From: Escherichia phage vB_EcoS_HASG4
Reading direction: 5' to 3' (one strand)
Sequence record: NC_100331.1
Length of the DNA stretch: 64,000 nucleotides
Made by a program: the position numbers and the translations under genes. Shown in pieces: positions 8,678 through 45,490 of this stretch. The notes below the pieces were generated by a model that saw only the letters and a list, made by a program, of their open reading frames with translations, did no database searches and was not told the DNA's origin. The stretch's first letter is position 1, and the number at the start of each line of letters is the position of its first letter.

Positions 8678-8700
8678 AGCCCCTATATGGGGCTTTTTGT
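8678..8700 (+). terminator. rho-independent terminator
   Basis: AGCCCCTATATGGGGCT followed by TTTTT. Confidence 0.6.
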
Positions 8701-8717
8701 GTATTTGGGATATGTAA

Positions 8718-9026
8718 ATGAGCGAACAGGTAAATCAAAACTATGAAGGACACGTTGATGACCAGTCCATCATACTTTGGGAGAAGGAGGGAGAACAAGT
8801 AAGATTAACAGTATCTGAATTTCGTGGGAATCTATACATGGGTATTCGTTACTGGCTTCTTGATATTAATGATGAATGGTTTCCAACGAAATCTGGCTTC
8901 TCTTTTCCTTACACCCTAGAAACAACATCACAGCTTTTCTATGCGTTTACTCAGATTCTTAGCGAATCTGAGGTTTTACATGAAGTACAGAAACGAGCTG
9001 AAGAACTCAAAGCCAAGAATGCCTAG
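8718..9026 (+). CDS. putative PC4/YdbC-like ssDNA-binding protein
   Basis: Pattern RLTVSEFRGNLYMGIRYWLLD...WFPTKSGFSFP resembles the PC4-fold signature; size about 100 aa. Confidence 0.4.
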   Translation: MSEQVNQNYEGHVDDQSIILWEKEGEQVRLTVSEFRGNLYMGIRYWLLDINDEWFPTKSGFSFPYTLETTSQLFYAFTQILSESEVLHEVQKRAEELKAKNA

Positions 9027-31796: not shown

Positions 31797-34646
31797 TTAA
31801 ATAGTAGCCCAACCAACAGATTGCTCACCATTTTCCCCCTCTGCTCTAATCCTAAATCGTAGTTTACGATTAATTCCTAAAGCACCGGAGTTTAATAGTG
31901 CAAAATCCGCCTTATTATATGTTAATAGATAGTCATAGGTATAGGCATCCTCTATCCTAATACTACGAAGCATTCTATCCCGAGAATCATGTATTTCTAG
32001 AGTGTAATAGATTTCTGGAATTATTTCTTCCTCAGGTATCTTATCCCAAGCAAGTTTCACATCTGGACCAACAAATTCGGTTACATCTCCAGAAGCTGTA
32101 TTAATTACTCTGAAGTTACTAACTACACTCAAGTTTCTAGCAGAGTTAAGATCCACGGAAAGAGTAACAGGAGAGCTACGTCTACCATTAATATCAACAG
32201 CACGTAGTTCAAAAATAGCTAAACCAGCAGGCTCACCTATAATCTCCTGAATCATCCTTTCATTAGGATTATTCTCTAATTGCTGAATTATATAAGGATC
32301 TACATGACCGGAATGGGCTATAGAATAATACACTACGTTATTAGTAAGACTAGGTAGCCAAGATAGTTCCCCATTTTTACCTATAGCACCTATCATACCA
32401 CCAGGAGTTGGTGTATACTTAAAGTCTCTAGGAGGAAGGACATTATTACTAATATCTGGAATATCATTACCACTGTTATCCACTTGATCAGAGTTGATAA
32501 ATACATCTTCACCATACTCTTGTAGTGTTAAGTTAATCTTACCATCACGAGTATTTTCTACTTCATCTACTAGGAAGAACTTGTCTTTCCACCCATAACG
32601 CTCATAAGTAAAAGCAATCGGATCATTTGGCTCTATACCAACGAACTTATATGGTACTGAGAAACTAAGTGTACGTGAGTATCTAGATTTTTTAAGCTCT
32701 CTATCTGCGTAACTACGAGCAGTGTAGTAGTTAGTAATATTTGCAAAAGATAGCTGAAGTTTTTTATCTAAACCCTTATCCTGTTCTTTAAACTTAGAAT
32801 TGTAGAATGTAATAGAGTTTGTTTTCCAGCTTAGTGCAGGATCTACTAGAGATGCTTGTACTGAGTTAAACTTATTTCTACCAGTAGTATCAGATAAGTC
32901 TAAGTCCCCATAAGTATCTAGAAAACTTATATTCAAAGGAGTTGTAGAGTGCTTCTCTACAGTTATTCTATACTCACCAGATAAGTTATTTATAGCTCCG
33001 CCAAAAGAATCCAGTACTCCTTGAACATTTTTAAATACTGATTCGGAGGTATCTAATATAGTGTTTAACTGAACTACTTGGCGATGTTCAGAAATAGAAT
33101 CACTCCAACCAACATATCTCCAATATGGTTGCCAGCTAACCTGATAAGACTCATCAATTATATCTAGAATTTTTGCTTCTGATATAATCTTTTGTAGTGG
33201 GAACTGATCTAGAGTTATATTAGCTCCATAACGTTCAGAGGTTAGATAGTCCATAAGCTGCCAGATACCGTTAAGGCTAGTTTTATCAGCTTTAACAGAT
33301 CCATCCGAACTATATACTTTGACTTTCTTACCTTGTACTTCAGCACTAATTTCTGGAATTTCAGTTCTATTCTCATTAATAGTAAATCTAACTACAGCGT
33401 AGGCTGTGTCTAAGAGCTTATAACGAGAATCCCAGTATTCTGGTCCATTGCCATTTTGGTTCTGTAAATAGAAACCTTTTCTTTTAGCAATATCCACTAA
33501 TACTTGAGCTGCTGTCTGGTCTGGTTTGCCATGAAAAGTCCATATTCTTATGTCACCATTACCATCATTATACTTATACTCCTGACCATGAACAGAAGGT
33601 TGAGACGTGCTTGTACCAGCAGCTAGTCTATGCATTGTATCACCCACTAGTTTCTTACGACCGAAGCAGGTTCTAGCATTGGAATCTGTTTCATCGAAAC
33701 AGATCATTGGGCTGTCCCCAATATAGAAATCTAGGAATCCGTCAATTTCTCCTTCCGAAAACGCATAGACTACATACACTATATTAGGGTTATTTAGCTC
33801 AGTATCTGCAAAAATAGGGATACCAGGAATTTTCTGAACTCCATATACAACAGGTATAAATTTAGCAGCTAAGTTAAAGTCTAGGTCAACTTCTTTAGTT
33901 ACAGTCTCATAATACTTTTTAAGACTGTAACTTCTTGATAGACCAAAGAGTTTCTTCTTGGACTGAAGTTTATAACGCTCTTCTTTTACTTGATATTTAG
34001 CTAATATAGTGGTACTTTTATTAGAATGAAAGAAGCCATAGTCTTCCTGATATTCAGGACGTTTAGCACCATTAGAAGGCTGTAATTGTCCATTAACAAC
34101 TTCAAGTCCTCGGTGAGAAGCATCATCGGTATAACGACCGTTTACTCTATCAAAGTCATAGAACTGGTTAGAACAGTTCCATGTTATAACAGAAGTTCCT
34201 ATACCAGAAGTACTAACATTATCCTTTATTCCACCTCCAGTAATTTTACCACGAAAGAATAGTAAAGGCCCGTTAGTATCAGGATCTACAGGAAGAATAT
34301 TACCTTCTTCATCAATTATAGCTTGATGTATAGTGATAGTTCTATCTAAGAAAGATACCCCATTTTGAACTAGTTTTAATACTTCATCTTCTGCTGTACC
34401 AGTTATGGTAAAAGATAGGCTACCAATAGATAGTTCACGATTTTGTTTATGAGAGCCGATACTTTTTACTTTACCAGATCTATACAAGATTCCATTATAA
34501 GTAATATCTCTAAAGTAGTCAGTTAAATAAATATAAGTAGCAGCAGAGCCTGATGAACTAGGAAGCTCTAAAGCTATAAGACAAGCTGTTTTTAGCTTGT
34601 CATGAGTATTAAGATATGTTTTAGCACTATCGAGTATCTGCTTCAT
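31797..34646 (-). CDS. baseplate hub protein (pb3-like)
   Basis: 949 aa large tail protein directly downstream of tape measure and distal tail protein; size matches what I recall for T5 pb3. Confidence 0.6.
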   Translation of the reverse strand: MKQILDSAKTYLNTHDKLKTACLIALELPSSSGSAATYIYLTDYFRDITYNGILYRSGKVKSIGSHKQNRELSIGSLSFTITGTAEDEVLKLVQNGVSFLDRTITIHQAIIDEEGNILPVDPDTNGPLLFFRGKITGGGIKDNVSTSGIGTSVITWNCSNQFYDFDRVNGRYTDDASHRGLEVVNGQLQPSNGAKRPEYQEDYGFFHSNKSTTILAKYQVKEERYKLQSKKKLFGLSRSYSLKKYYETVTKEVDLDFNLAAKFIPVVYGVQKIPGIPIFADTELNNPNIVYVVYAFSEGEIDGFLDFYIGDSPMICFDETDSNARTCFGRKKLVGDTMHRLAAGTSTSQPSVHGQEYKYNDGNGDIRIWTFHGKPDQTAAQVLVDIAKRKGFYLQNQNGNGPEYWDSRYKLLDTAYAVVRFTINENRTEIPEISAEVQGKKVKVYSSDGSVKADKTSLNGIWQLMDYLTSERYGANITLDQFPLQKIISEAKILDIIDESYQVSWQPYWRYVGWSDSISEHRQVVQLNTILDTSESVFKNVQGVLDSFGGAINNLSGEYRITVEKHSTTPLNISFLDTYGDLDLSDTTGRNKFNSVQASLVDPALSWKTNSITFYNSKFKEQDKGLDKKLQLSFANITNYYTARSYADRELKKSRYSRTLSFSVPYKFVGIEPNDPIAFTYERYGWKDKFFLVDEVENTRDGKINLTLQEYGEDVFINSDQVDNSGNDIPDISNNVLPPRDFKYTPTPGGMIGAIGKNGELSWLPSLTNNVVYYSIAHSGHVDPYIIQQLENNPNERMIQEIIGEPAGLAIFELRAVDINGRRSSPVTLSVDLNSARNLSVVSNFRVINTASGDVTEFVGPDVKLAWDKIPEEEIIPEIYYTLEIHDSRDRMLRSIRIEDAYTYDYLLTYNKADFALLNSGALGINRKLRFRIRAEGENGEQSVGWATI

Positions 34647-35257
34647 AGACTTTCCCTCAAGGAAAGTGAAATACCAGAGTAAGTACCATTGTTATTTAAT
34701 GTAGAACCAAAAGAATCAGCATTCATTAGCTTAGTTCTAAATAAGATACCATTAAAAACTGGTTTTTCACTACCCGTAGTAGTAATAAATAGGTCAGGAT
34801 ATAAGGATAAGTTCCATACATTTCCTGAGCTAGTAAAATTTGTTATTTTATAGACTTTTGGGTGGTTGGATAATTTAAATAGATCTCCAGCTTTTGGTAG
34901 TCCTGTTAAGGTTCCATTAGTATTTAGTATAATCTGGGAACCTTTCTGTCCGGCTGGTATAGTAACACTTTTAGTATCACCACGTACTCTAAATGCTTCA
35001 TACTGAGGTAGAAGTACTTCTAGATAATCTCCAGTTCTTTTATATTCTAAAATTTTAGAATCTAGGAACGCATATTCATCTGGGAAAAGTTCCGGGTATG
35101 AGATATTAATTCCCCAGTATTGAGCAGATATTTTAACCTCTTTGACTTTACCATTAGGTAATTCATCACGAATCATAGGGTCATTATCTACTACGTTGAC
35201 GCTTTCAAAACCTAACCCTGGGTACTCTGGGTTCGTGTATGGATCTGGTAGTCTCAT
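34643..35257 (-). CDS. distal tail protein (Dit-like)
   Basis: 204 aa ORF immediately downstream of the tape measure gene, the usual Dit position. Confidence 0.5.
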   Translation of the reverse strand: MRLPDPYTNPEYPGLGFESVNVVDNDPMIRDELPNGKVKEVKISAQYWGINISYPELFPDEYAFLDSKILEYKRTGDYLEVLLPQYEAFRVRGDTKSVTIPAGQKGSQIILNTNGTLTGLPKAGDLFKLSNHPKVYKITNFTSSGNVWNLSLYPDLFITTTGSEKPVFNGILFRTKLMNADSFGSTLNNNGTYSGISLSLRESL

Positions 35258-35330
35258 AGTTAATTTCTCCTCTTTAATAACAATATTATAATAGTATTGG
35301 AAAATTTTATCAAGAAATTTTTATTTTTCC

Positions 35331-35351
35331 ATAAAGAAAAGGAGGACATAA
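35331..35351 (-). terminator. hairpin downstream of tape measure gene, part of a conserved hairpin-plus-motif element
   Basis: On the - strand GGAGGACT-ttat-GTCCTCC followed by TTTTCTTTATGGAAAAATAAAAAT. Confidence 0.45.
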
Positions 35352-35366
35352 AGTCCTCCTCCAATA

Positions 35367-38300
35367 TTACATATTACCAAGAGATTTAAGGGTGGATCCA
35401 TTCTCATTAAGAGCCAGTTCCACGGCATCTCTTAAAGCAGTGCTGTTATTCGATGCAAAATCTCTAAAGCTAGCAGCATCCATTGTGCTAATATTCAGAA
35501 TGATTGGTCTTCCAGAGGTAGTCTTTGATCCATCGGAAAGCTGATCATTAGGTGTAGCTTTCATAGGAACCATGGGAGTAATTACCTCGGTACCGTGCTC
35601 ACCCATTTGATAGCTTACTCCAGGGTACATCATACCGCCTTCCGCACGTGGAACAAAGGAGTTAGCATTACCGATACCTTTATCACCACGTAGGTAGGAT
35701 AATTCTCCTGAGCTAGCCTGCATAGATACATCAACGTTCTTCTGTCGTTCACCTAGAGTTAAATACTGAGTAGTATCTGCTCCAGAGTCAGCGATAGAAG
35801 ACATACCAGATGCAGAAGATGCCTGAGCAAGAGCTAGTGCACCTGCCAAACCTGCCGCCACCATTAGAGGAATAGAGAACGGATATGGTACAGCTGTTGC
35901 TGCTTGCATTACTGCTACTGCTGTCTGAATGATAATCTGTTTCTTAGCTGCATCCTGTTGAATTTTAAGCTTTTCAGCTTCTAATTTCTTCAGTTTAGCT
36001 TTAGATGCCTCAGATTTACCATCACGCTTCTGTTCTGCGGCAATAGCCTGATCAATTGCACTAACCTGCTGACTAGTACTATATTGAATCATAGAAGCCA
36101 CAGTTTGCATACCAGAAGCAATCATAGACGTAGTATCTAAAGATCCCTGAGAGAATTGAATCATAGAGTTGGTTAAATTACCCATACTCTGAGCCACAGC
36201 GGTTGCTTCAGAATTTAATTCAGACAGCTTAGAGATTGCCTGATCATAAGAAGCCATTCTATTTTGCATATCAGCAAAATCTTTATCTTCTCCAGATAAC
36301 CCCGTTGTAGGAGTGTACACAGCACCCACAGAGGATCCTACCTGTTGTTGCATTTGAGCATTACGTTGCGCTGTTAAAGCAGACATTTGAGCCCTTGTCT
36401 TAGCTATTTCAGCATTCCAGCGCATCTGCTCATTAGCATTACCTTTAGTAAGTTCCTTCATCTGAGTATAAAAATCTAGCTGCATTTCCATTTTCTGCAT
36501 TTCCCCAGCCAGAGGGAACATGGAAGTTAGTGTATTTTCAAAGGCTTCTTGCCTTTTGCGGGTCATTTCAGCTTGCTGATCTTGGCGGAATTTCCAGATT
36601 TCACGCTCTATCTGTGCTTGAGCACGCCTAGATTGTTCAGCCTCTTTTTGTTTATCAGCTTGTTTTGTATACCATTCGTACTTCTCTTTTTCAATGGTCA
36701 ATTCAAGATTTAACTGTGCTAGACGATACTGAGTATCTGTCATAGTACGGTTATTTAAGAGAGCTATCTCACGATCTACACCAAGAATTTTATCTGTGTA
36801 ATCCTTGACCTTCTTCTGAGCTTCCATACCCTGATTGGTAAGTTTAAGTTTCTCCAGCTGAATTTTTTCAATTTCTTTCTCAACAGCTTTATTTCCCTGG
36901 TTTGTTTGAAGAACGCGGCGTAAAGCAGTTTCTTGCTCTTCTAACTGTTGCAACTCTAAACGTCTACCAGCTTCCTGAGCTTTTTCCTTATCCTTAGTTT
37001 GATTATACACATCAGCTATTTTCTGTTGAACTGCTAACTGATTTTTAGTTTCATTACCCGTTAGTTTAACGTACTCGGATAAGGCTTGGGAAGCAGTTTT
37101 CATCTCAGATAAGGTGTTAAACCCTAAGTTGAGACTTTTAACATACTCATCCGCACTCTTACCAGTTCCTGCGGAGAGAGATTCTACATTTCTAATTACC
37201 TCTTCAAAAGTTGCACTAGTTTTAGCAGCGGTATCTGTACTACTAGCTATATTTTGAAAGTCATTAGCTAAGTCACTAGCAGTTTTCTTAGTCTGATTAT
37301 ATGCTTTTTGTTGTTCAGTTAGTCCTTTTAATACAGTAGAGTTAAAATCGTATACAGCATCAGGATCAGTAGTATCTCTCTGTAGATTAATCTGTTTCTG
37401 AAACTCTGGATTAGCCTTTGCAGCAGCAGCCCCAGCAGCTTGATACGCTGATTTCCAAGCATTGAGGTTCTCTGTAGAATCCTCTACTTCCTTACCGAGT
37501 CTAGTTACTTGTAGACCCATAGCTGCGGTTTCTTCTACAAACTTTTTATTAGCTTCGGAAGCACCCGCGGCTGCAAGACCAACAGGAATACCTTCACCAA
37601 CTTGACGTATAGCTAGTTTTGTATAGAAATCTGCTTGTTCCATTCGTTTATCGAACTCAGATTTTAGCTTATTACGCTTATCAAGAGATTCCTTATACAT
37701 ATCTAGAGCTTTATTATAGCCTTCTTCAGAAGCAGCTAAACTTAAAGCAACAGCACCAACGTTGGTAGGGTCTATTTGTCTATTAGTTTTTTCTTGAGCC
37801 CTAGCTGCCTCAGCAGATATAGAAGCCTGAGATGTATAAAATACTGTGTTGATAGCATCAATTACTGGCCCTAAATACTTAGCAGCAGCTTGTTGTATTT
37901 TTCTTAGTGCAGCATCTGCATTAGCAGCAAATTGCTCCCATGGAGTTGCACGTAGTACTTCATCTAGGTATCCAAACCGTTTAGTAGATTCAGCAATTAC
38001 CGCATTAGCATATGCTTGTTGTTTCTGGAAAGTGGTAAGGCTATTAATATTATATGTTATACCTGTGTTTGCAGCATTTAACTGTTTAACGTAATCAGCA
38101 TAAGCATCGTTAAGACGAATAGTAACACCAAGTTCATCCAGAAGTTCGATTTCTTGTTTAGATACACCCTTAATTACACGGTTAAGTGCATCAGTCATAT
38201 CAACTCCAAGAACAGCAGCAGCACGACGAGCTACTAAACCAAATTTATTGAGTTGTTCGGCATCAAATCCATAAGCGGACGCTGAGGATGCTTGCCTCAT

Positions 38301-39050
38301 AGCTTCTTCAAAAGAGATTGCATAGCCAGCTGCCTCTTGCAGTGATCTAGCAAGGGACTGAACAGGAGTACCTGTCTGAGTACCTACTATAACACCAAAT
38401 TTTTCTAGACGATTTAGCTGGTCACCTAGTTTAAGTTGTTCGAATGCAGATTGCAAAACGAAGATGTTGGAAGCAAGAGCTGCATACATAATAGGTAAAC
38501 TACCACCTATCTTAGCCATTGCTGCAAAATCACGAGTTGCACCGCGTGCTGAACCAGAAGTATTACCAATAGCTCTAGAGGCTCTACCAGCGGCACCAGC
38601 AGTATCATTAAAACCTCTAGCTGTACCGCCTAAAACTCTATTGGTATCATACAATCTATCTTGAACTTTTTCTGTTGCAGCTGCAACATCATTACCCATT
38701 GCTTTAACAGATCTAGAAACTCCGTCGAATCCAATCTCTAGTTTATCTGTTACTTCAATAAGTTGGATAGCCAGGTAATCTAGCTTATCACCAATACCAT
38801 CAATGGATTTAGTGATACCAGCCATACCCCTACTAGCTTGCATTTTAGTAAGACTTTTCGCTGCCCTATCCGCTGCCCTCTCAATGGAGTAAAGGGTTTT
38901 GGGCATTTTACCTAACTGCTCATTTGTCAGTTCGGAAGCAGCAGCAGCGTTTTCTAACGCATCAGATACGTTTTCAATAGACTTTGCAGTACGAGTTGCC
39001 CCCTTCTGTTTAACGTCTATTAATAATTCTCGTATTAGCTTATCAGTCAT
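35367..39050 (-). CDS. tail tape measure protein
   Basis: 1227 aa, extensively coiled-coil with Gly/Ala-rich hydrophobic segment, C-terminal region after tail tube and chaperone genes. Confidence 0.8.
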   Translation of the reverse strand: MTDKLIRELLIDVKQKGATRTAKSIENVSDALENAAAASELTNEQLGKMPKTLYSIERAADRAAKSLTKMQASRGMAGITKSIDGIGDKLDYLAIQLIEVTDKLEIGFDGVSRSVKAMGNDVAAATEKVQDRLYDTNRVLGGTARGFNDTAGAAGRASRAIGNTSGSARGATRDFAAMAKIGGSLPIMYAALASNIFVLQSAFEQLKLGDQLNRLEKFGVIVGTQTGTPVQSLARSLQEAAGYAISFEEAMRQASSASAYGFDAEQLNKFGLVARRAAAVLGVDMTDALNRVIKGVSKQEIELLDELGVTIRLNDAYADYVKQLNAANTGITYNINSLTTFQKQQAYANAVIAESTKRFGYLDEVLRATPWEQFAANADAALRKIQQAAAKYLGPVIDAINTVFYTSQASISAEAARAQEKTNRQIDPTNVGAVALSLAASEEGYNKALDMYKESLDKRNKLKSEFDKRMEQADFYTKLAIRQVGEGIPVGLAAAGASEANKKFVEETAAMGLQVTRLGKEVEDSTENLNAWKSAYQAAGAAAAKANPEFQKQINLQRDTTDPDAVYDFNSTVLKGLTEQQKAYNQTKKTASDLANDFQNIASSTDTAAKTSATFEEVIRNVESLSAGTGKSADEYVKSLNLGFNTLSEMKTASQALSEYVKLTGNETKNQLAVQQKIADVYNQTKDKEKAQEAGRRLELQQLEEQETALRRVLQTNQGNKAVEKEIEKIQLEKLKLTNQGMEAQKKVKDYTDKILGVDREIALLNNRTMTDTQYRLAQLNLELTIEKEKYEWYTKQADKQKEAEQSRRAQAQIEREIWKFRQDQQAEMTRKRQEAFENTLTSMFPLAGEMQKMEMQLDFYTQMKELTKGNANEQMRWNAEIAKTRAQMSALTAQRNAQMQQQVGSSVGAVYTPTTGLSGEDKDFADMQNRMASYDQAISKLSELNSEATAVAQSMGNLTNSMIQFSQGSLDTTSMIASGMQTVASMIQYSTSQQVSAIDQAIAAEQKRDGKSEASKAKLKKLEAEKLKIQQDAAKKQIIIQTAVAVMQAATAVPYPFSIPLMVAAGLAGALALAQASSASGMSSIADSGADTTQYLTLGERQKNVDVSMQASSGELSYLRGDKGIGNANSFVPRAEGGMMYPGVSYQMGEHGTEVITPMVPMKATPNDQLSDGSKTTSGRPIILNISTMDAASFRDFASNNSTALRDAVELALNENGSTLKSLGNM

Positions 39051-39072
39051 GTTTTATTTTCCCAATAAAAAA

Positions 39073-39097
39073 GGCTCTGGGCAAATCACCCAGAGCC
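39073..39097 (-). terminator. hairpin immediately upstream of the tape measure start, part of a conserved element
   Basis: On the - strand GGCTCTGGG-tgatttg-CCCAGAGCC followed by TTTTTTATTGGGAAAATAAAAC then ATG. Confidence 0.45.
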
Positions 39098-39132
39098 AAG
39101 CCTCATCGTGGAACGCCCATTGGAGGAAACTT

Positions 39133-39501
39133 TTATCGTGCACGAGATTTAGCATGTGGCTTAACGTTAGGAATCCTTCCGTTTTGCGGCTTATGCTTCT
39201 CAGCACGTTTACGTGCAGCATCTACAGCTTTAGCATCAAATATATTGATGATGTGTAGAACAAATTCTTTTTCTATAGGATCAGTAATCCCATAAATATC
39301 AAATAAAACACCTAGAGCTGCTTTATCTTTACCTATAAAGATAGGAAAGTCACCAGGTATGAAACAGTCAATTAGACTATTATAAATATTCATACTAATA
39401 GCTACAATAGGTGGAAAATCTTCAAGTTCAACAGGCATAGCCTTAGGATCAGGTTCTATACCCATTGATTCACAAAGTATTAAATATTGTTGTTTAGTCA
39501 T
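39133..39501 (-). CDS. putative tail assembly chaperone (second of two)
   Basis: Small acidic ORF between tail tube-side genes and tape measure, the usual chaperone position. Confidence 0.35.
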   Translation of the reverse strand: MTKQQYLILCESMGIEPDPKAMPVELEDFPPIVAISMNIYNSLIDCFIPGDFPIFIGKDKAALGVLFDIYGITDPIEKEFVLHIINIFDAKAVDAARKRAEKHKPQNGRIPNVKPHAKSRAR

Positions 39502-39562
39502 TTTAGATGCTGAGCTTTTAATACACTTATCTGCAAAATCAGCAACAGCATCTAGTAATTCT

Positions 39563-39967
39563 TTACGCTTTTGAGCTACGAAAAGTGTCTAAATGGAACA
39601 CTGTCTGGTTGATCCAAGAATCAAACGCAGCAGAGTTCTGCATAAGCATTACAGCATTATCACGACTAAATGGAACTTCAGTAGCAGGATCAGCATCCGT
39701 CTCAATCAGCATGAGTTTTTCAACGTCACCCACAGTCAAACCAGTCCAACCTTTAATAGCAGCATCAACAAATGCTTCAATGAACTTATCATCATCCTGT
39801 ACCTGAATCAAAGTACCATTAACCCACTCATCACGCTTAGCAGAAGTGATAACTCGTTTAGAAGTAGCACGAGACATATAATTAAGCTCTAGCTTAAAGT
39901 TAGGCATACCTGGGTATGAAAGGGTAACAGTGCGAGTTTCTAGGGTAATATCTTTTAAGTTAATCAT
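39563..39967 (-). CDS. putative tail assembly chaperone (first of two)
   Basis: Small ORF upstream of tape measure; position-based call. Confidence 0.35.
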   Translation of the reverse strand: MINLKDITLETRTVTLSYPGMPNFKLELNYMSRATSKRVITSAKRDEWVNGTLIQVQDDDKFIEAFVDAAIKGWTGLTVGDVEKLMLIETDADPATEVPFSRDNAVMLMQNSAAFDSWINQTVFHLDTFRSSKA

Positions 39968-40860
39968 TATTTTCTTTCTCCAAAGAAGTTTATTTCTACA
40001 GGATCTGAATCAGCAGTAGGTATTACATCATACTCTACCTGATACAAATCTGAGAAGTTTAGGCGTTTTGAAATACGTGCTAAAGGGAATGTTATAGAAA
40101 CATATTTATTTTTAATAATTAGGGGAGTTCTTGTTTCAGGGTCTAGATTCAAGAACTTATCTCCTACCAATCTCTTAACGTAATAGAAAGCTAGCGTTGC
40201 TGAAGCATTCATCTCATTGACATAAGCCCGTTTATTAGTATAAACTTTATTTATATCAAATATACTTCTATCTTCTCTCCAAGAACATTGTTGCTGGAAG
40301 GACATAGATGCTGAGACTAATGCAGGCAATGGTGCGCTATTAGTATACACAGCTGGAGGACTATATGGTAGTACCTCACCTTGTGTAATCGTATATCCAT
40401 CACGGAAAGTAGATACCTCAGAGAATTTTCCAGACTCAATACCAACATTTAGGATCGGTATACTCTTATCTAGAGAAAAATCAACTGTTGATACATAACA
40501 GTTTTCGAAATAAATACAGCTATTATGATTAATAATATACATATTGAACATAATAGGTTCAATATTGGGAGTATTTCTTGGCAAAAATAAAGAATTTCCC
40601 TCACGCGTGAATCCCATCCAATCAAAGAAGTTAGATTCAATAAGCGTAGTACTGAAATTTATTGCCAATGAAATAGATGAAGGATCTTGAGCATTAATAA
40701 TAGAGTCTGCATAGTTGGTACGATTATGAATAGTACGTCTAAGAGTTTTAAACTCTTGAAAAGACGTACTAGCATCATAGTTAGAGAGGGCATCGAAATG
40801 ATACCCTCTACCATCATACTCAACAACTATTTTAGACTCTCGCATGAGAGAATAAAACAT
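39967..40860 (-). CDS. tail protein (possibly p140-like)
   Basis: 297-aa ORF between tail tube and chaperone genes; no motif. Confidence 0.4.
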   Translation of the reverse strand: MFYSLMRESKIVVEYDGRGYHFDALSNYDASTSFQEFKTLRRTIHNRTNYADSIINAQDPSSISLAINFSTTLIESNFFDWMGFTREGNSLFLPRNTPNIEPIMFNMYIINHNSCIYFENCYVSTVDFSLDKSIPILNVGIESGKFSEVSTFRDGYTITQGEVLPYSPPAVYTNSAPLPALVSASMSFQQQCSWREDRSIFDINKVYTNKRAYVNEMNASATLAFYYVKRLVGDKFLNLDPETRTPLIIKNKYVSITFPLARISKRLNFSDLYQVEYDVIPTADSDPVEINFFGERK

Positions 40861-40864
40861 TTAA

Positions 40865-42259
40865 TTAACCACCTGCTGTTACAGTAATCTGTTTAGTGCC
40901 TTTAACTCCAGAACCATCTTTAGCAGTAGCTTCTACGGTTACTACACCAGTTTTACTAGCATCCGCTGTTAACAGTCCTGTTGCATTGATAGTAGCTGCA
41001 TCACCGGCAGTGATAGCCCAAGTAACTTCCTTATTCTTTGCAGAAGAAGGAGTAACTTCAACACTCATTTGAAGAGTAGCCGAATTGTTTACTGTAGTAG
41101 CATCACCAGCAGATTTAACAGTAATTGCGGTTACAGCATCAATAGCACCATTACCATTAACAATCAAGTTATTAATAGTTGTTTTGGTGTATTTACTAGA
41201 GAAGCCTAAGTAACCCTCATCACCAGCATCCAGCTCTGATGGAATAGCCTTAAACTCTACTGAAGTACCAAGTACATCATCAGTCTCAATCGTAGGAATA
41301 TTAACGTGTGCCTGTTTAGCTACCAGAATAGCTGCAGGACGTTCTTCATCATATTCACCACCAAGTACTAGAGCGATTTCGAAGCGGTTAACTACTTTCA
41401 GAGTTTTGACAAGATCTTTATACAGTTCCATAGAACCAAGAGATTTATCATTCAGATAAGCAGTCAATGAACCAGTTAATTCAAAAGCACCAGTAAAGGA
41501 ACCGATCGGAATATTAACACGTGACATTACATTAGGTGTTAGATAAGTAATGTTGTTATTAATAGTAAAAGTACCACCAGTAATAGGTATATCATAAGAT
41601 TTATTGGTATCCATGTCCTTGATCTTCAAGATCGTTAGTTTGTTCTTAATATAAGAACCCTGGATAGTCATATAAGTTTCATCATCAATACCTATTTCAT
41701 CTGGGTCAAATGGTTGCTCATCCAGTGGGATTAGCTGATTACCATTACCAGACCAAGTTACACGGCCAATATCTTCAATATCAACGTTAACTTCTGCCTG
41801 ATTAATCTGACAGGAATCGATATAACTCCATGCTTTATCAGTCAGAATATAAATATGTAGCATTGCCAACTCGTGATAAGAGTTATCTTTGAAGTTAACC
41901 ATGAAGTTAGCTTCGTTATTGTGTGCCCCTGTATCACCTTCTAGGTTAAGAGCTTTACCGCTAGAAAGTGCATGCCATAACATATAGTCAGGAACAATTT
42001 GTTTGCTAGTAGTTTTATCCTTGTATGGCAGGATATAAGTAGAAAAACTCCACTCAGCCGCATTCAAGGAATCGTTAAAACGTTTAGAACCACGAGTAGG
42101 ACGCGGACCAGCTTCGTTAACAGTAATATCTGTTGAGTTACTGTCCTGACCCCAAGAAATATCATCCTGAACTAGAATCTCTTGCGTGTTGGTCTTATTG
42201 TGACCAGTCTTAACCGTAGACACGAAGATTCGAGTATTACGTAATAGTTGTAAAGACAT
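40865..42259 (-). CDS. major tail tube protein (pb6-like) with C-terminal Ig-like domain
   Basis: 464 aa; C-terminal ITVKSAGDATTVNNSATLQMSVEVTP...VTVEATAKDGSGVKGTKQITV resembles a bacterial Ig-like (BIG2-type) domain; AGGAG SD. Confidence 0.7.
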   Translation of the reverse strand: MSLQLLRNTRIFVSTVKTGHNKTNTQEILVQDDISWGQDSNSTDITVNEAGPRPTRGSKRFNDSLNAAEWSFSTYILPYKDKTTSKQIVPDYMLWHALSSGKALNLEGDTGAHNNEANFMVNFKDNSYHELAMLHIYILTDKAWSYIDSCQINQAEVNVDIEDIGRVTWSGNGNQLIPLDEQPFDPDEIGIDDETYMTIQGSYIKNKLTILKIKDMDTNKSYDIPITGGTFTINNNITYLTPNVMSRVNIPIGSFTGAFELTGSLTAYLNDKSLGSMELYKDLVKTLKVVNRFEIALVLGGEYDEERPAAILVAKQAHVNIPTIETDDVLGTSVEFKAIPSELDAGDEGYLGFSSKYTKTTINNLIVNGNGAIDAVTAITVKSAGDATTVNNSATLQMSVEVTPSSAKNKEVTWAITAGDAATINATGLLTADASKTGVVTVEATAKDGSGVKGTKQITVTAGG

Positions 42260-42285
42260 TTAATTATTTTCTCCTAATCTGTAAC

Positions 42286-42771
42286 TTATCTGCGAAGTGA
42301 CCTACGTGGAGGCTGATACCTCACTGTTACATTTATTTCTGCTAAACCATATGGGGCCAGTAGACCCTCATCTGTACTAACTGATGTAATGATCATATCA
42401 GTTGCCTCACATGGGAAGGTCGATCCATTAGGTTTACTAACAGTATATTCTAAATTTCCACCTGTGTCAATAACGGTTTTTATATCCGCTACGAGTTTTT
42501 CAAGTTGCTCTTGAATGTCTGTTTTCTCTTTATCGTACACCAGGATTGGAAGTTCTAAAAACATCCACTGTTGGCCTGAAGGAAGATACTGCCCAGTTTC
42601 AGTTCCGATATGAACTGCTACATAAGGAAACTCTCGTATTTCCTCAAATTTATAAGTTTGACGAGAAACGTTTCCATATAAGTTATTAAAATATTCGTCA
42701 GGTTGAGAACCATCCATTTGTTTAGAGATTCGGTCAACCATAGCTTGTGCAATACTTGTTCTATGGTCCAT
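42286..42771 (-). CDS. tail terminator-like protein
   Basis: 161-aa ORF directly upstream of the tail tube gene. Confidence 0.45.
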   Translation of the reverse strand: MDHRTSIAQAMVDRISKQMDGSQPDEYFNNLYGNVSRQTYKFEEIREFPYVAVHIGTETGQYLPSGQQWMFLELPILVYDKEKTDIQEQLEKLVADIKTVIDTGGNLEYTVSKPNGSTFPCEATDMIITSVSTDEGLLAPYGLAEINVTVRYQPPRRSLRR

Positions 42772-42774
42772 TTA

Positions 42775-43542
42775 CTAGGTTCCTTGATTAACCTTAATTT
42801 TATATCTGGAGTGAATTAGGTCTCTTGCAGCTTTTGCTATAGCCTCACCAATAAGTTTTTGTGGGTTTCTAGCGCCAGGATACGGTCGTAGGGATAATCT
42901 TCTATATGTAGATACTGCTGGGTTGAATACAGAATATGGACGAGTCATATAATTATATGTTACGTTTAATTCAGGAGAGCCTTTACTGGTTTCAGAATCA
43001 CGAAGCATAACATCTTTAATTTTTAAAGAGTTTGCAAAGCGACCAGTTCTAAACTTTAATGGTGCTCCAGCTTTTTTCATATCCTTTATTAAGTATTCTT
43101 TAGCAACTATCTCTAGTATAATCTTCATATTGCTGTTAGACACGAAACGTCCGGAAGCACCTGTTACTGCACCAGAATATCCATCTTCAACATCACTAGG
43201 ATCACCAAAGTTTACCTGCACTCTACCAGTAGAACGTTTTTTACCTACTGAGGATTTTTTACCAGCGGTTGCTTGTATTAGATTCTCCAGAGCACCTAAA
43301 TCTCCAGAAAGATCTAAACTAGAGGATACAGCTTTTAGTATAGAAGCTGTTCTAATGTTAAGGAGATCTTGTGATACCGGTTTTGAAAACTTAAAAGATA
43401 CTTGAGCAACAGTACCATCTCTGGTAGGGTCTTTTAACCCTGTTTCAACAGAGTATACAACAGTATTCTTATTATTTTCAGATCGGCTTGCAGTATCTAG
43501 CTGCTCTTTAATAATTTGTCTAGCTAGATCAGAAAGAGACAT
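42775..43542 (-). CDS. hypothetical head/tail joining protein
   Basis: 255-aa ORF in the connector region between head and tail genes. Confidence 0.35.
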   Translation of the reverse strand: MSLSDLARQIIKEQLDTASRSENNKNTVVYSVETGLKDPTRDGTVAQVSFKFSKPVSQDLLNIRTASILKAVSSSLDLSGDLGALENLIQATAGKKSSVGKKRSTGRVQVNFGDPSDVEDGYSGAVTGASGRFVSNSNMKIILEIVAKEYLIKDMKKAGAPLKFRTGRFANSLKIKDVMLRDSETSKGSPELNVTYNYMTRPYSVFNPAVSTYRRLSLRPYPGARNPQKLIGEAIAKAARDLIHSRYKIKVNQGT

Positions 43543-44054
43543 TATACTCTCCTATATACTTCAATAATAGTACGAATATGCTCTGGAATACCAGATTTAG
43601 TGTTATTGAAGGTTACTGTTTCACCACCAATTGTTTTAGCTTGGCGATAATCTTGTTTGTGCCAATGATCTACTAGCATACATGCTGCAAGTTTGAGATC
43701 TTCAGGAATTGGGTTAAATCCACCTTGTGTGTACTCTACATCCATATAACCTTCTGGAGGACTAAATTTAAGAAGTATAACCCCATCAGAATACAACTTA
43801 TACTGTTCGGGATCTATCTCCTTATCATTAATAGTCATTTTGGTTACTGAAGTAGCTGAGGGAGAACTTAAAAAGTATTTTTTTCGAGTAGGTTTTGTAT
43901 TGATTAACTGGTCTACCGCATCAGCATCATCCATACCTAAAAGGCTAGTAATCAGCGCATTGGCAGCAGTAATCATCATCTCTACTCCAGATTCTAGTTC
44001 AGGTCGTTTTAACCCGCCGTATAATCTATAGTCTTCAGCTGTGATTATTTGCAT
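43542..44054 (-). CDS. head completion/connector protein (putative)
   Basis: 170-aa ORF immediately downstream of the major capsid gene; start preceded by the conserved hairpin-plus-motif element. Confidence 0.4.
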   Translation of the reverse strand: MQIITAEDYRLYGGLKRPELESGVEMMITAANALITSLLGMDDADAVDQLINTKPTRKKYFLSSPSATSVTKMTINDKEIDPEQYKLYSDGVILLKFSPPEGYMDVEYTQGGFNPIPEDLKLAACMLVDHWHKQDYRQAKTIGGETVTFNNTKSGIPEHIRTIIEVYRRV

Positions 44055-44073
44055 TTATTTTTCCCAATAAAAA

Positions 44074-44093
44074 AGGAGAGCCGAAGCTCTCCT
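44074..44093 (-). terminator. rho-independent terminator after the major capsid gene, part of a conserved element
   Basis: On the - strand AGGAGAGC-ttcg-GCTCTCCT followed by TTTTTTATTGGGAAAAATAAATG. Confidence 0.55.
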
Positions 44094-44113
44094 TATCGGC
44101 TGAAAAGCCTGTA

Positions 44114-45490
44114 TTAAGCGGTAGCGTAAGCACCGGATACAACACCATTACTAAAGTAACGTTGCAGGTTAACACGCTGAGTAACGTAATACGCATCACG
44201 CTGTTTACCAGCTTGGCGCTCACGTTCAACAGTGACAGCGCGCTGACGTGGCATTACGAAGTTATCTTTATAAACGATAACTGCGAACTCTTTCTCAGCC
44301 GCTTTAGCTGGGAAGTACTCAGAAACTACAACCGGCAGACCATAAATACGACCAACCTGACCTTGCAGTTTAACAGCATCGTTACCAACCTGTGCAACAT
44401 CCTGCCATTCTTCATCTTCCAGAAGGTCATAGTAAGCATCCATAGATACAATCAGTACCAGTTTGCTCAGTTTCAGACCATGACGACCCAGTTTACGACG
44501 CAGTTTAGAGATAGTTTTAGCAGTTACTAGAACAGAACCATCAGCTTTAGCTTCGGTAGTAACTTTAGCACCATCATCTTCAGCCAGTTTCAACAGACCT
44601 TTCGGCTTACCAGTACCATCACCAGTCATGAAAGCTTCTTCGATAGAAACAGCGTGTGCTTCGATCAGACGCTTACGTAGCAGTGGCAGCAGGGAGAAGA
44701 TTGCATCTTCTTCAGTTTCATCAGTAATGAAGGACTTAGCAGCCAGTTTGTAGGTTTTAAAACTAATTTCAGTTAATGTACCTTTAACTTCGTTACCAAC
44801 AGTAGCATCAGTACCGTAGGAACCAGCATCTACCCAAGTAGCTTTTCCAGCTTCAGGTTCAACCAGCATAGTAAGAATTTTGCTGGACATTGGCAGTTCA
44901 TCGAACAGTGCACCAACTACTAACTCTTTCTGCAGGTCACGAAGGATACGGGTAGAGAAAATAGTTTCGTAGTTTTCACTGGAAACCTGTACAGAGGAAG
45001 AAGTATTAACAGCTTTAACGTGGGCCTTACCATGTTCAGTTTCAAATACGTCCTTCTCCATCATATAAGACAAGAGAACTAGTTTTTCAACTTCATCTTC
45101 AAAAGCTTCCTGAGTACCATATAGTGCTTTAGCTACGCTATCACCGACGAATGAGCGGCCTTCACGAGCTGCTAGCAGAGATTTAATTTCATCCTGAAGA
45201 CCAACAATAGTTTCCTGCTGCTTTTCTACAGTCTGTGCAAACAGTTCTGCGCTCTTTTTAGATTTTTCATCCAGGGACTTAACCAGTTCCAGAGCTTGTT
45301 CCAGTTTCTGACGATCTTCGCCAACTGCTTTAGAAACCAAGTCATTCATACGAGCCAGTTCTTTTTCTTCCTGCTCTTTACGCATACGTTCAGCTTCCTG
45401 AGCTTTCTGAGCAGCGGTCAGACCTTCCAGAGATTTAGCCAGATCACCCAGACCAAGTTCTTCTTTCAGCTTATTAATATCAATAGTCAT
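44114..45490 (-). CDS. major capsid protein precursor (HK97-fold)
   Basis: 458 aa; N-terminal coiled-coil scaffold-like delta domain (MTIDINKLKEELG...ELARMND) followed by a capsid core; GGAG SD; adjacent to protease. Confidence 0.8.
   Translation of the reverse strand: MTIDINKLKEELGLGDLAKSLEGLTAAQKAQEAERMRKEQEEKELARMNDLVSKAVGEDRQKLEQALELVKSLDEKSKKSAELFAQTVEKQQETIVGLQDEIKSLLAAREGRSFVGDSVAKALYGTQEAFEDEVEKLVLLSYMMEKDVFETEHGKAHVKAVNTSSSVQVSSENYETIFSTRILRDLQKELVVGALFDELPMSSKILTMLVEPEAGKATWVDAGSYGTDATVGNEVKGTLTEISFKTYKLAAKSFITDETEEDAIFSLLPLLRKRLIEAHAVSIEEAFMTGDGTGKPKGLLKLAEDDGAKVTTEAKADGSVLVTAKTISKLRRKLGRHGLKLSKLVLIVSMDAYYDLLEDEEWQDVAQVGNDAVKLQGQVGRIYGLPVVVSEYFPAKAAEKEFAVIVYKDNFVMPRQRAVTVERERQAGKQRDAYYVTQRVNLQRYFSNGVVSGAYATA

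Follow-up and report, generated by a model that had tools for sequence, protein, structure and literature searches.

In the Escherichia coli rpsU-dnaG-rpoD operon, terminator T1 precedes dnaG, which has a poor ribosome-binding site (RBS), and an attenuator is also found in rplL-rpoB. Among phages, T7 has the T-phi terminator after gene 10, and f1/M13 has a terminator after gene VIII and before gene III. AU-rich and U-rich translational enhancers are reportedly recognised by ribosomal protein S1. For T5, promoter PG25 was reported by Gentz and Bujard in 1985 (as cited in AY303686), late transcripts from PG25 have been detected by primer extension (PMC7472727), and T5-type promoters have an A-rich block at -43 (PMC3326045).

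The window (the whole 64,000-nt stretch of Escherichia phage vB_EcoS_HASG4 DNA that was analysed) comes from a T5-like phage and contains three sites at which a hairpin is followed by a U-run and a box (Table 1). These sites are real, non-random and conserved across the Demerecviridae. They are ordinary terminators, not one novel element: sites 2 and 3 abut the weak RBS of low-copy virion genes, and site 1 abuts a known late promoter. The three sites probably act as Rho-independent terminators and divide the cluster of late structural genes into units of expression; the "box" is then whatever adjoins each of them.

The combination of a terminator with a weak RBS is of an already known kind. 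Sites 2 and 3 resemble rpsU-dnaG-rpoD in having an operon-internal Rho-independent terminator, no promoter after it and a weak downstream RBS, which would give unequal protein amounts. They differ in that the phage RBS starts at the base after the U-tract and in that a phage structural-gene cluster has two such arrangements sharing 21 nt. As in T7 and f1, a leaky or strong intrinsic terminator follows the gene of the most abundant virion protein, and minor virion proteins would come from fewer transcripts. However, T7 relies on a phage-encoded RNA polymerase and on a terminator of class I, whereas T5-like phages use the host sigma-70 polymerase, and f1 gene III has its own weak promoter, whereas the adaptor gene p144 has none. 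Site 1 does not differ from T5 PG25, being PG25 itself; sites 2 and 3 share only an A-rich 11-mer with it and lack promoter hexamers. Similar to the S1 enhancers, sites 2 and 3 have a U-rich tract 5' of a weak Shine-Dalgarno sequence (SD) and then an A-rich spacer, and the box alone is predicted to be unstructured, but the phage tract is first of all the terminator U-tract and its enhancer role is putative.

Table 1. Features of the three sites and their surroundings. Positions are those of the window; all site coordinates are on the minus strand.
Feature	Position	Strand	Remarks
Site 1 terminator hairpin (GGA)GGAGGAC-TTTAT-GTCCTCC	35341..35362 (core 35359-35341)	-	-12.1 kcal/mol; annotated in MK373799, AY303686 and AKFV33
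Site 1 U-tract TTTTCTTTAT	35331..35340	-	adjoins hairpin
Site 1 box segment GGAAAAATAAAAA	35318-35330	-	after U-tract TTTTCTTTAT
Late promoter PG25: A-rich block GGAAAAATAAAAATTTC (35330-35314), -35 TTGATA (35313-35308), 17-nt spacer, -10 TATAAT (35290-35285)	35285..35330	-	11/12 hexamer positions
Strong SD AAAGAGGAG of distal tail protein pb9	35267..35275	-	-9.1 kcal/mol
Distal tail protein pb9 gene	34643..35257	-	first gene after PG25
Tape measure protein pb2 gene	35367..39050	-	ATG at 39050
Site 2 initiation region of pb2, GGGAAAATAAAAC: weak SD GGGA (39063-39060) and spacer AAATAAAAC	39051..39063	-	-4.2 kcal/mol
Site 2 U-tract TTTTTTATT	39064..39072	-	T5 endonuclease insertion starts immediately 3' of tract
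Site 2 terminator hairpin GGCTCTGGG-TGATTTG-CCCAGAGCC	39073..39097	-	-19.1 kcal/mol; annotated terminator
Conserved non-coding element AAGTTTCCTCCAATGGGCGTTCCACGATGAGGCTT, 35 nt	39098..39132	-	between T-ORF stop and site 2 hairpin
Chaperone T-ORF	39133..39501	-	precedes site 2 hairpin, which starts 35 nt past T-ORF stop
Intragenic promoter-like site TTGACA-N17-TATACT	42442..42470	-	11/12; ~210 nt upstream of tail tube gene pb6
Adaptor p144 gene, 170 aa	43542..44054	-	ATG at 44054
Site 3 initiation region of p144, GGGAAAAATAA: weak SD GGGA (44065-44062) and A-rich spacer AAAATAA	44055..44065	-	SD:anti-SD -4.2 kcal/mol
Site 3 U-tract TTTTTTATT	44066..44074	-	kept in all relatives having the site 3 hairpin
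Site 3 terminator hairpin GGAGAGC-TTCG-GCTCTCC (cUUCGg tetraloop)	44075..44092	-	-11.1 kcal/mol; terminator in MK373799
Small conserved hairpin GGCTTTTCAGCC (44109-44098) and CCGATAA (44099-44093)	44093..44109	-	upstream of site 3 terminator

Anatomy of the three sites

The three hairpins had GC-rich stems of 7-11 bp and loops of 3-7 nt, and on the transcribed strand a U-rich tract lay directly 3' of each stem, sites 2 and 3 both having TTTTTTATT and site 1 having TTTTCTTTAT. Set against the criteria for intrinsic terminators (stem of at least 5 bp, loop of 3-8 nt, adjoining U-rich tract of 7-9 nt), no sequence feature was missing from any of them. All three were gene-oriented and stood just past stop codons: the site 1 hairpin started 4-7 nt past the pb2 stop (TAA 35369-35367) and the site 3 hairpin about 21-22 nt past the stop of the major capsid protein (TAA 44116-44114). 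Extended to 35362, the site 1 hairpin slightly exceeded the range given in the original prediction. The terminators were recovered by two scans and are annotated in the phage's own GenBank record (MK373799, all three hairpins) and in T5, AKFV33 and Spivey. The hairpins of the three sites differed from each other in sequence, each being kept between phages but not between sites.

The recurrence of hairpin, U-run and box at three minus-strand sites, as first described, was borne out by the coordinates and by chance tests. With up to three mismatches, the 19-mer box had 3 matches in the window against 0.18 expected, and 0/100 shuffles reached 3; a degenerate 13-mer had 7 matches against 2.3 expected. 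The box was absent from the first 50 kb of the genome, and in the 114 kb of genome examined a pattern of T-rich tract, GG(G)A, A-rich tract and ATG had no further site beyond sites 2 and 3.

Near identity of the box at all three sites held for sites 2 and 3 only. There the box was composite, consisting of the terminator U-tract (TTTTTTATT), a weak SD (GGGA) and an A-rich spacer to the ATG, AAA(A)TAA(AAC). Both boxes ran straight into the ATG of the tape measure and 170-aa genes, as had been noted. The accompanying claim that no canonical SD was present was right in that GGGA is weak; at -4.2 kcal/mol, against -5.4 to -9.3 kcal/mol for other late genes, these were the weakest among late genes with an RBS. 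GGGA is nevertheless SD-like and at a normal distance from the ATG (7 nt at site 3 and 9 nt at site 2, within the usual 5-10 nt). Site 1 had only the 11-mer GGAAAAATAAA in common with the other two, and what lay downstream of it was a promoter instead of an ATG. The A-rich part of the box at site 1 is the upstream A-tract of PG25; the -35 carries the annotation promoter G25 in AY303686, and from GGAAAAATAAAAATTTC through TTGATA-17-TATAAT the sequence was the same as in T5 (L017).

Conservation and substitution among relatives

In 10 lineages, Vibrio phages among them, each of the three positions retained the hairpin architecture. Intergenic identity to distant enterobacterial relatives was 75-83%, against 56-76% for flanking coding DNA. 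The site 3 hairpin was the same in every enterobacterial relative seen, its stem being invariant in enterics; L020 had an A..T at the base, and Vibrio phages carried different, equivalent hairpins. Upstream of it, the small hairpin retained a GGC..GCC stem and had variable loops. At site 2, stem changes were compensatory in Spivey, Kamaji, KKP_3711, L052 and phi3, as judged by eye since MAFFT misaligned the arms. The variants, which included G-C to A-T and other double changes, were CCTAGGG/CCCTAGG in Spivey, GAG/CTC in KKP, a basal A..T in Kamaji and L032, and TAG/CTA in L052; none was disrupted. The 35-nt element before this hairpin is non-coding, because it carried indels of 1-2 nt among relatives. 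Within it, a hairpin CCUCC...GAGG was predicted in several relatives.

Conservation of the motif across T5-like genomes, on which the original prediction depended, was wide: TTTTTTATTGGGAAAA(A)TAAA did not differ between the two sites and scarcely varied across Tequintavirus, Epseptimavirus and Priunavirus, with flanking genes differing by 10-40%. This identity, 21-23 bases between sites 2 and 3, exceeds what the need for a weak SD alone would explain and is a point against the reading of a terminator with a weak SD.

In some relatives GGGA was swapped for canonical SDs. The replacements at site 3 were GGAGG, AGAGG, AGGAGG, TAGGA, GGGT or GGA, and at site 2 AGGTGA or AGGAG was found (KKP_3711, L052, phi3). 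Right after the U-tract, SD-like motifs were GGAGG and AGGAG (phi3), AGAGG (L032), AGGTGA (L052), TAGGA (L005/L027) and GGGT/GGA (others); farther from it were AGGAGG (70E34-3) and AGGTGA in KKP_3711, where GGGA was lost (GTCT). In the annotations of T5 pb2 and of Spivey, AGGA, GGGT and GGA are given as RBS, pb2 having AGGA in T5 (AY303686) and GGA in Spivey. In Vibrio relatives the corresponding places carry strong SDs; thus, the family as a whole does not require weak initiation.

A homing-endonuclease gene was inserted right after TTTTTTATT in two phages, T5 and IrisVonRoten; in T5 it lies exactly between TTTTTTATT and GGGA. The terminator was kept, and pb2 uses AGGA with an ATGA overlap instead. 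Homologous endonuclease genes were inserted at both intergenic regions. Because this insertion splits the box and canonical SDs replace GGGA in relatives, the box is separable and is not a single shared module. At site 1, both PG25 hexamers were retained in relatives; the GGAAAAATAAA string was lost in Spivey, Kamaji, PSTCR5 and the Vibrio phages, which kept the A-rich block and the promoter. Of the proposed shared terminator-reinitiation module, then, the terminators stand, annotated and conserved, and the single box does not, being composite, replaceable, split in T5 and part of PG25 at site 1.

Promoters, copy numbers and a proposed mechanism

No sigma-70 promoter match of at least 9/12 was found at 44065-44020 or 39063-39020, and the gap between terminator stem and ATG (22 nt at site 2 and 20 nt at site 3) is too small for a promoter. 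The genes after sites 2 and 3 are without promoters of their own, and their expression would therefore have to come from read-through RNA. The promoter-like site upstream of pb6, which fills in the operon layout, lies inside the tail-terminator gene; five other genera have both of its hexamers between -199 and -211, with differing spacers.

Virion copies are 775 for the capsid protein, 12 for adaptor p144 and 120 for the tail tube protein (PMC11313276). Both promoter-less terminators fall at the largest copy-number drops: capsid to p144, and tail tube to tape measure. Taken together, the terminator features, their conservation, their placement at the copy drops and the promoter-less downstream genes make a role in setting late protein ratios, as was originally suggested, plausible. 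Partial termination, read-through and their effect on protein ratios are what we infer from these features. In the literature on T5-like phages, no Term-seq or 3' RACE, transcript ends, termination efficiencies or translation rates were found for the sites.

The proposed mechanism is as follows. Hairpin and U-tract UUUUUUAUU would halt part of the RNA polymerases past the capsid gene (site 3) and past the tail tube and chaperone genes (site 2). Polymerases that read through would make the sole mRNA for the next cistron, whose RBS starts at the base after the U-tract with weak GGGA, an A-rich spacer of 7-9 nt and AUG. The U-rich and A-rich flanks may aid 30S/S1 binding, and at site 3 pairing of AUUGG with CCGAU upstream of the hairpin could further throttle initiation. 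The outcome would be little p144 and little tape measure protein beside abundant capsid and tail tube. At site 1 the terminator would close the tape-measure transcript, and PG25, with its -43/UP-like A-rich block, would restart transcription for the tail-tip genes, the first of which has a strong SD. A hairpin of -19 kcal/mol with a perfect U-tract right before an essential gene implies substantial, putative read-through, which is a point against this explanation.

Other readings of the shared box

An SD-sequestering switch, which would add to the terminator reading and not replace it, is possible though rather unlikely. AUUGG would pair upstream in the read-through RNA and partly bury the RBS; its partner would be CCGAUAA in the case of site 3, and in that of site 2 CCAAU/UUUCC from the conserved element. 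Conservation would reflect this pairing. CCGATAA is complementary to TTATTGG of the box, and the minimum free energy fold of site 3 lengthened the terminator stem via CCGAUA:UAUUGG (-19.3 against -11.1 kcal/mol for the core). As read from the sequence, UUUCC-UC-CAAU at site 2 is complementary to AUUG-GGAAA. In longer read-through RNA AUUGG was predicted to be paired in many relatives, and mostly paired in the phage analysed here, Spivey, PSTCR5, phi3 and L032. However, both partners are nearly invariant and hence give no covariation to test; the site 2 partner varied by phage, lying upstream in some and in downstream coding sequence in others; and RNAalifold gave no consistent long-range pair. 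Helices for the box alone were weak (-1.5 to -2.8 kcal/mol) and no better than shuffles, 73/200 of which were as good as the box at -1.5 kcal/mol.

It is fairly improbable that the identity of the box at sites 2 and 3, and its conservation, are mainly historical, with no box-specific function beyond terminator and RBS. The source would be duplication of one cassette of terminator and RBS, recombination at the conserved intergenic junctions of a mosaic genome, or both. The higher conservation of the intergenic modules than of flanking genes fits such a history, as do the homologous endonuclease genes at both regions. Additionally, the pb9 alleles form classes of ~77%, ~90% and 97-100% identity although the intergenic region in front of them hardly varies, and within lineages the two sites vary together, enterics having GGGA/GGGA and phi3 GGAGG/AGGAG. 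Against it, the two hairpins have unrelated sequences, a stretch of 21-23 nt is short for recombination, and because conservation reaches Providencia and Serratia phages, purifying selection is implied irrespective of the origin.

A specific site for a trans-acting factor (a phage or host translational repressor resembling T4 RegA, Hfq on U-/A-rich tracts or an antitermination factor) that co-regulates exactly these two low-copy genes is improbable. It would account for the near invariance across genera with diverging flanks, which goes beyond weak-SD selection alone, and the spacer AAAAAUAAA forms three ARN triplets, presumably a putative motif of the Hfq distal-face type. A RegA-like regulon would have the motif at the start sites of several genes; the box is present just twice in 114 kb and hence marks no regulon. 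It was also freely swapped for ordinary SDs in relatives and for an unrelated RBS in viable T5, and no candidate regulator for the box was identified. Similarly doubtful is that the invariant UUAUUGGGAAAA(A)UAAA goes beyond U-tract and weak SD and is read by a late phage protein, Hfq or S1 coupling terminator read-through to translation of the first downstream cistron. Such a control, to which the 35-nt element would also belong, would dose adaptor and tape measure proteins jointly.

RNase E commonly acts at an AU-rich unstructured segment beside a stable stem-loop, and the box was predicted to be unstructured, AU-rich and so placed. Cleavage of the hairpins and the single-stranded box by RNase E or RNase III, giving stable upstream mRNAs and a downstream cistron inactivated or activated, is very unlikely all the same. 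Stems of 7-10 bp are too short for RNase III, a GC-rich stem with a U-tract straight behind it is typical of intrinsic termination, and the box sequence is replaceable. No Rfam covariance model matched at or above its gathering score (best 27.8 against 45 and 19.4 against 111, E at least 0.7). With no long duplex and no structure within the box either, the RNA-processing part of the original prediction was not upheld.

Finally, it is hardly credible that at sites 2 and 3, as at site 1, the box serves as upstream element to a promoter, here one located in the initial codons of the next gene. The 11-mer matches the PG25 A-rich block and TTGGGA has 4/6 of a -35 hexamer, but there is no -10 hexamer at 16-18 nt and no match of at least 9/12, the transcript would start inside the gene, and phages differ at the wobble positions of the downstream codons.

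Hairpins of the late region and their conservation

The stretch queried, 34800-45000, was 100% identical to Escherichia phage vB_EcoS_EASG3 (MK373799.1; Tequintavirus, Demerecviridae); window positions were obtained by subtracting 56560 from positions in that record. All late structural genes in the region were encoded on the - strand, and the 170-aa protein corresponds to the T5 adaptor p144, likewise 170 residues long.

Features of the late region and associated sites (window positions)
Feature	Position	Strand	Remark
Portal, then protease		-	First in late gene order
Major capsid protein	44114..45490	-	
Small hairpin GGCTTTTCAGCC	44093-44109	-	Just before site 3 terminator
Site 3	44055-44092	-	Precedes p144
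170-aa gene (p144)	43542..44054	-	Followed by tail completion, tail terminator
Near-consensus sigma-70 promoter TTGACA-N17-TATACT	42442-42470	-	Inside tail terminator gene, about 210 nt before pb6
Tail tube pb6, then p140	40865..42259 (pb6)	-	
First chaperone ORF (134 aa)	39563..39967	-	
Second chaperone ORF (122 aa)	39133..39501	-	
35-nt non-coding element AAGTTTCCTCCAATGGGCGTTCCACGATGAGGCTT	39098-39132	-	Between second chaperone ORF stop and site 2 terminator
Site 2	39051-39097	-	Precedes pb2
Tape measure pb2	35367..39050	-	
Site 1	35318-35362	-	Precedes pb9
Mini-ORF ATG GAA AAA TAA	35321-35332	-	In site 1 box
Distal tail protein pb9, then baseplate hub pb3	34643..35257 (pb9)	-	
Terminator-GGGA-ATG arrangement	8679-8720	+	Early region

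The three sites, each a hairpin, a U-tract and a box (U-tract end, GG(G)A and A-rich stretch), were present as originally described. The 19-mer box, allowing up to three mismatches, matched three times in the window versus 0.18 expected, and 0 of 100 shuffles reached three. About seven convincing terminator-like sites occurred in the window and only these three carried the box; all three hairpins are labelled 'putative transcriptional terminator' in the GenBank record. The genome's first 50 kb lacked the box, and the 114 kb examined contained no further T-rich/GG(G)A/A-rich/ATG site; additional matches to a degenerate 13-mer (3012, 21875, 40579, 55599) adjoined neither terminators nor start codons. 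A regulon of box-bearing genes was rejected, as neither the window nor the first 50 kb held more copies. Rfam comparison of the sites gave no match near threshold.

Hairpin, U-tract and box varied hardly at all among 29 T5-like contigs from IMG/VR, and identity over the initial 90 nt of the genes that follow fell to 75-90%. The hairpin and U-tract occurred again at the same three positions in distant Demerecviridae members: Klebsiella phage Spivey, Serratia phage Kamaji, Providencia phage PSTCR5, Enterobacter phage KKP_3711 (KKP), two contigs, and Vibrio phages phi 3 and 70E34-3. Against four enterobacterial relatives, intergenic regions were 75-83% identical and flanking coding DNA 56-76%. 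The hairpin and U-tract were kept family-wide, with the box itself replaced in several relatives. The Vibrio relatives have strong Shine-Dalgarno sequences (SDs) at these places; the family-wide constant is the terminator and not the weak SD.

Substitutions in the site 2 stem were paired among relatives and disruptive in none (Spivey, GGCCTAGGG/CCCTAGGCC; KKP, ..GAG/CTC..; Kamaji and contig L032, A..T at the base; contig L052, ..TAG../..CTA..), indicating that the hairpins are real RNA structures under selection. These compensatory changes were taken directly from the sequences and not from a formal covariation count; RNAalifold on MAFFT alignments of site 2 misaligned the arms, and its consensus (-2.6 kcal/mol) missed even the terminator. 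Judged by sequence, the hairpins have every attribute of intrinsic terminators: stem, U-tract and placement after stop codons. The literature searched on T5 late transcript ends, Term-seq and RNA-seq contained nothing that maps 3' ends. A metagenome scan anchored on the 35-nt element upstream of site 2 returned 43 matches, 37 of them chance matches in GC-rich coding DNA; the six T5-like matches all had the same module and so added no diversity.

Contig L008 (IMG/VR 2974619798, T5-like pork29) had a site 3 U-tract of 13 T, located upstream of position 10001; the expansion is either homopolymer slippage or a sequencing artefact. The early region contained a fourth terminator-GGGA-ATG arrangement, GCCCCTATATGGGGC TTTTTGTGTATTTGGGATATGTAAATG, of the same design and different sequence.

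The second chaperone ORF lacked an SD (-0.1 kcal/mol), and the AKFV33 annotators recorded 'No ribosome-binding site'. Its frame is open across a 26-nt overlap with the end of the first ORF (ACU UUU CGU AGC UCA AAA GCG UAA), at +1 (or -2) and not the usual -1; the pair (39133-39967) is presumably made by a programmed frameshift of unusual direction.

Composition of the box and the promoter at site 1

At sites 2 and 3 the box is composite, on three lines of evidence. Among relatives, an SD-like motif replaced GGGA, mostly at the position right after the U-tract, and independent annotators marked AGGA (T5 pb2) and GGGT and GGA (Spivey) as ribosome-binding sites (RBSs).

Sequences between U-tract and start codon in T5-like phages and contigs (L handles)
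Source	Site 3	Site 2
Tequintavirus / Epseptimavirus	GGGAAAAATAA-ATG	GGGAAAA(A)TAAA(AC)-ATG
PSTCR5	GGGAAAAATAA-ATG	GGAAAAATATA-ATG
Spivey	GGGTAAAAT-ATG	GGAAAAAATC-ATG
L005/L027	TTAGGAAAAATAA-ATG	As Tequintavirus
L032	AGAGGTATATA-ATG	GGAAAAATT-ATG
phi 3	GGAGGTAATAAA-ATG	AGGAGAAAACTCATA-ATG
70E34-3	AGGAGGTAAGAA-ATG	Junction differs (extra ORF between)
L052	GGGTAAAATAA-ATG	AGGTGAAATTCAT-ATG
KKP_3711	ATGGGTACTAC-ATG	GTCT..., then separate AGGTGAATA-ATG

In T5 and phage IrisVonRoten, a homing-endonuclease gene (T5.141) was inserted exactly after ...CCCAGAGCCTTTTTTATT. The upstream element, hairpin and U-tract were all retained, GGGAAAAATAAAAC was lost, and pb2 started at AGGAAAACATTAG-ATG, whose ATG forms an ATGA overlap with the stop codon of the endonuclease gene. 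This insertion splits the box into a U-tract that is part of the terminator and a remainder that is part of the start of the gene. The earlier statement that a canonical SD is missing held in part: GGGA is weak (-4.2 kcal/mol; other late genes, -5.4 to -9.3 kcal/mol) but still SD-like and normally spaced, 7 and 9 nt from the ATG.

No meaningful structure was predicted for the box alone. A U-tract/A-tract hairpin (UUUUAUU/AAUAAAA) was rejected at -1.5 kcal/mol, with 73 of 200 shuffles folding as well. No hexamer pair was found within the box of sites 2 and 3, and a promoter there was likewise rejected.

Homing-endonuclease-like genes adjoined both terminators, at 835-1587 of locus L070 (T5 NC_005859 gene T5.141) and 9376-9948 of L020. 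The two were homologous (36% identity, E 3e-35); in L020, L022 and L027 the insertion followed the capsid gene and preceded the site 3 hairpins.

Site 1 was ordered as hairpin, TTTTCTTTAT, GGAAAAATAAAAATTTC, promoter TTGATA-17-TATAAT (11/12 hexamer positions), strong SD (AAAGAGGAG) and pb9. The T5 sequence is identical here, and in AY303686 (T5) the TTGA is labelled as the -35 of promoter G25. Primer extension showed PG25 transcripts at 30 min after infection, accumulating thereafter (PMC7472727), and an A-rich block around -43 is typical of T5-type promoters (PMC3326045). More distant relatives lacked the string GGAAAAATAAA at site 1 and kept an A-rich block and the promoter hexamers. Because the A-rich stretch at site 1 is part of the promoter, the likeness to sites 2 and 3 is confined to an A-rich 11-mer with a different job. 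With SD-like replacements in relatives, the T5 insertion and a promoter at site 1, the originally predicted single reinitiation or processing module was not upheld.

The mini-ORF between the site 1 terminator and the PG25 -35 hexamer is probably meaningless. The first 90 nt of pb9 (loci L003-L031) formed identity classes of about 77%, about 90% and 97-100%. These classes occurred in phages that are close in other respects, and the terminator-promoter region in front of pb9 was almost the same in all, which suggests that the intergenic region is a recombination junction.

Proposed operon layout and protein ratios

The gap from terminator to ATG was 22 nt at site 2 and 20 nt at site 3, with no promoter match. 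With neither room for nor match to a promoter, we infer that p144 and pb2, both essential, are translated from read-through transcripts and that termination at these sites is partial. Tape measure protein is present in a few copies per virion. The virion contains 775 copies of capsid protein, 12 of adaptor p144, 6 of tail terminator, 120 of tail tube, 3 of p140, 6 of pb9 and 3 of pb3 (PMC11313276). The two promoter-less terminators thus fall at the two largest copy-number drops.

Five other genera, represented by Spivey, Kamaji, PSTCR5, KKP_3711 and Vibrio 70E34-3, kept both hexamers of the putative intragenic promoter before pb6 at -199 to -211, with a differing spacer. The late region would then read: portal, protease and capsid; terminator; adaptor, tail completion and tail terminator; promoter; tail tube, p140 and chaperones; terminator; tape measure; terminator; PG25; tail tip. 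As to the prediction that these sites set late protein ratios, the terminators do stand at copy-number steps, and the layout indicates that they probably shape those ratios.

Other terminators in this genome were followed by promoters or ordinary SDs at similar short distances, making the terminator running into an RBS a recurring design. In the rpsU-dnaG-rpoD operon an internal terminator and a poor RBS precede dnaG, and sites 2 and 3 would work alike. Similar terminators follow the major coat genes of T7 (T-phi) and f1/M13. The arrangement is of a known kind, without new principle; its parts are already annotated (terminators, PG25) or ordinary (RBS), and what is new is limited to its conservation across the family, the twin 21-mer and its location at stoichiometric steps. 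If true, it would provide a simple map of T5-like virion stoichiometry via host RNA polymerase alone, with strong units for capsid and tail tube, terminator plus weak RBS for adaptor and tape measure, and a terminator-promoter pair before the tail tip genes. Such a map would serve in annotating several hundred (~840 here) Demerecviridae genomes and in engineering T5-like therapeutic phages, e.g., in choosing payload insertion points without upsetting ratios.

Twin box sequences and the upstream element

Still unusual is the extreme degree to which 21 bases at two sites, and the 35-nt element before the tape measure terminator, are conserved. Selection for a weak SD does not explain 21-23 nt identical at two sites and stable across genera; shared origin, concerted change of sites 2 and 3, or a trans-acting factor reading the box may each do so. 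Site 3 has CCGAUAA immediately 5' of its hairpin, complementary to UUAUUGG; the stem extended in this way was the predicted minimum (-19.3 vs -11.1 kcal/mol). For most relatives, predicted folds of read-through RNA had AUUGG mostly paired, and both sides of the site 3 pairing were invariant. In these folding models the pairing may explain part of the box conservation at site 3; at site 2 the predicted AUUGG partner was inconsistent between phages. The 5' arm of the site 2 terminator could also pair with UCCAAUGGGC as an antiterminator, an option dismissed as too weak against -19 kcal/mol and without visible regulatory logic.

In relatives, the small hairpin before the site 3 terminator kept its GGC/GCC stem and had variable loops. 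Because its 3' arm shares bases with CCGATAA, and CCGATAA is complementary to TTATTGG beyond the terminator, the RNA may adopt either of two pairings.

The 35-nt element had no Rfam match. It was conserved in Spivey, Kamaji, PSTCR5, KKP_3711 and L052 and recognisable in Vibrio phi 3; indels of 1-2 nt in KKP_3711 mark it as non-coding. It contained CCUCC (anti-SD sequence) and two copies of UUCC, the complement of GGAA in the box, and a CCUCC...GAGG hairpin was predicted in several relatives.
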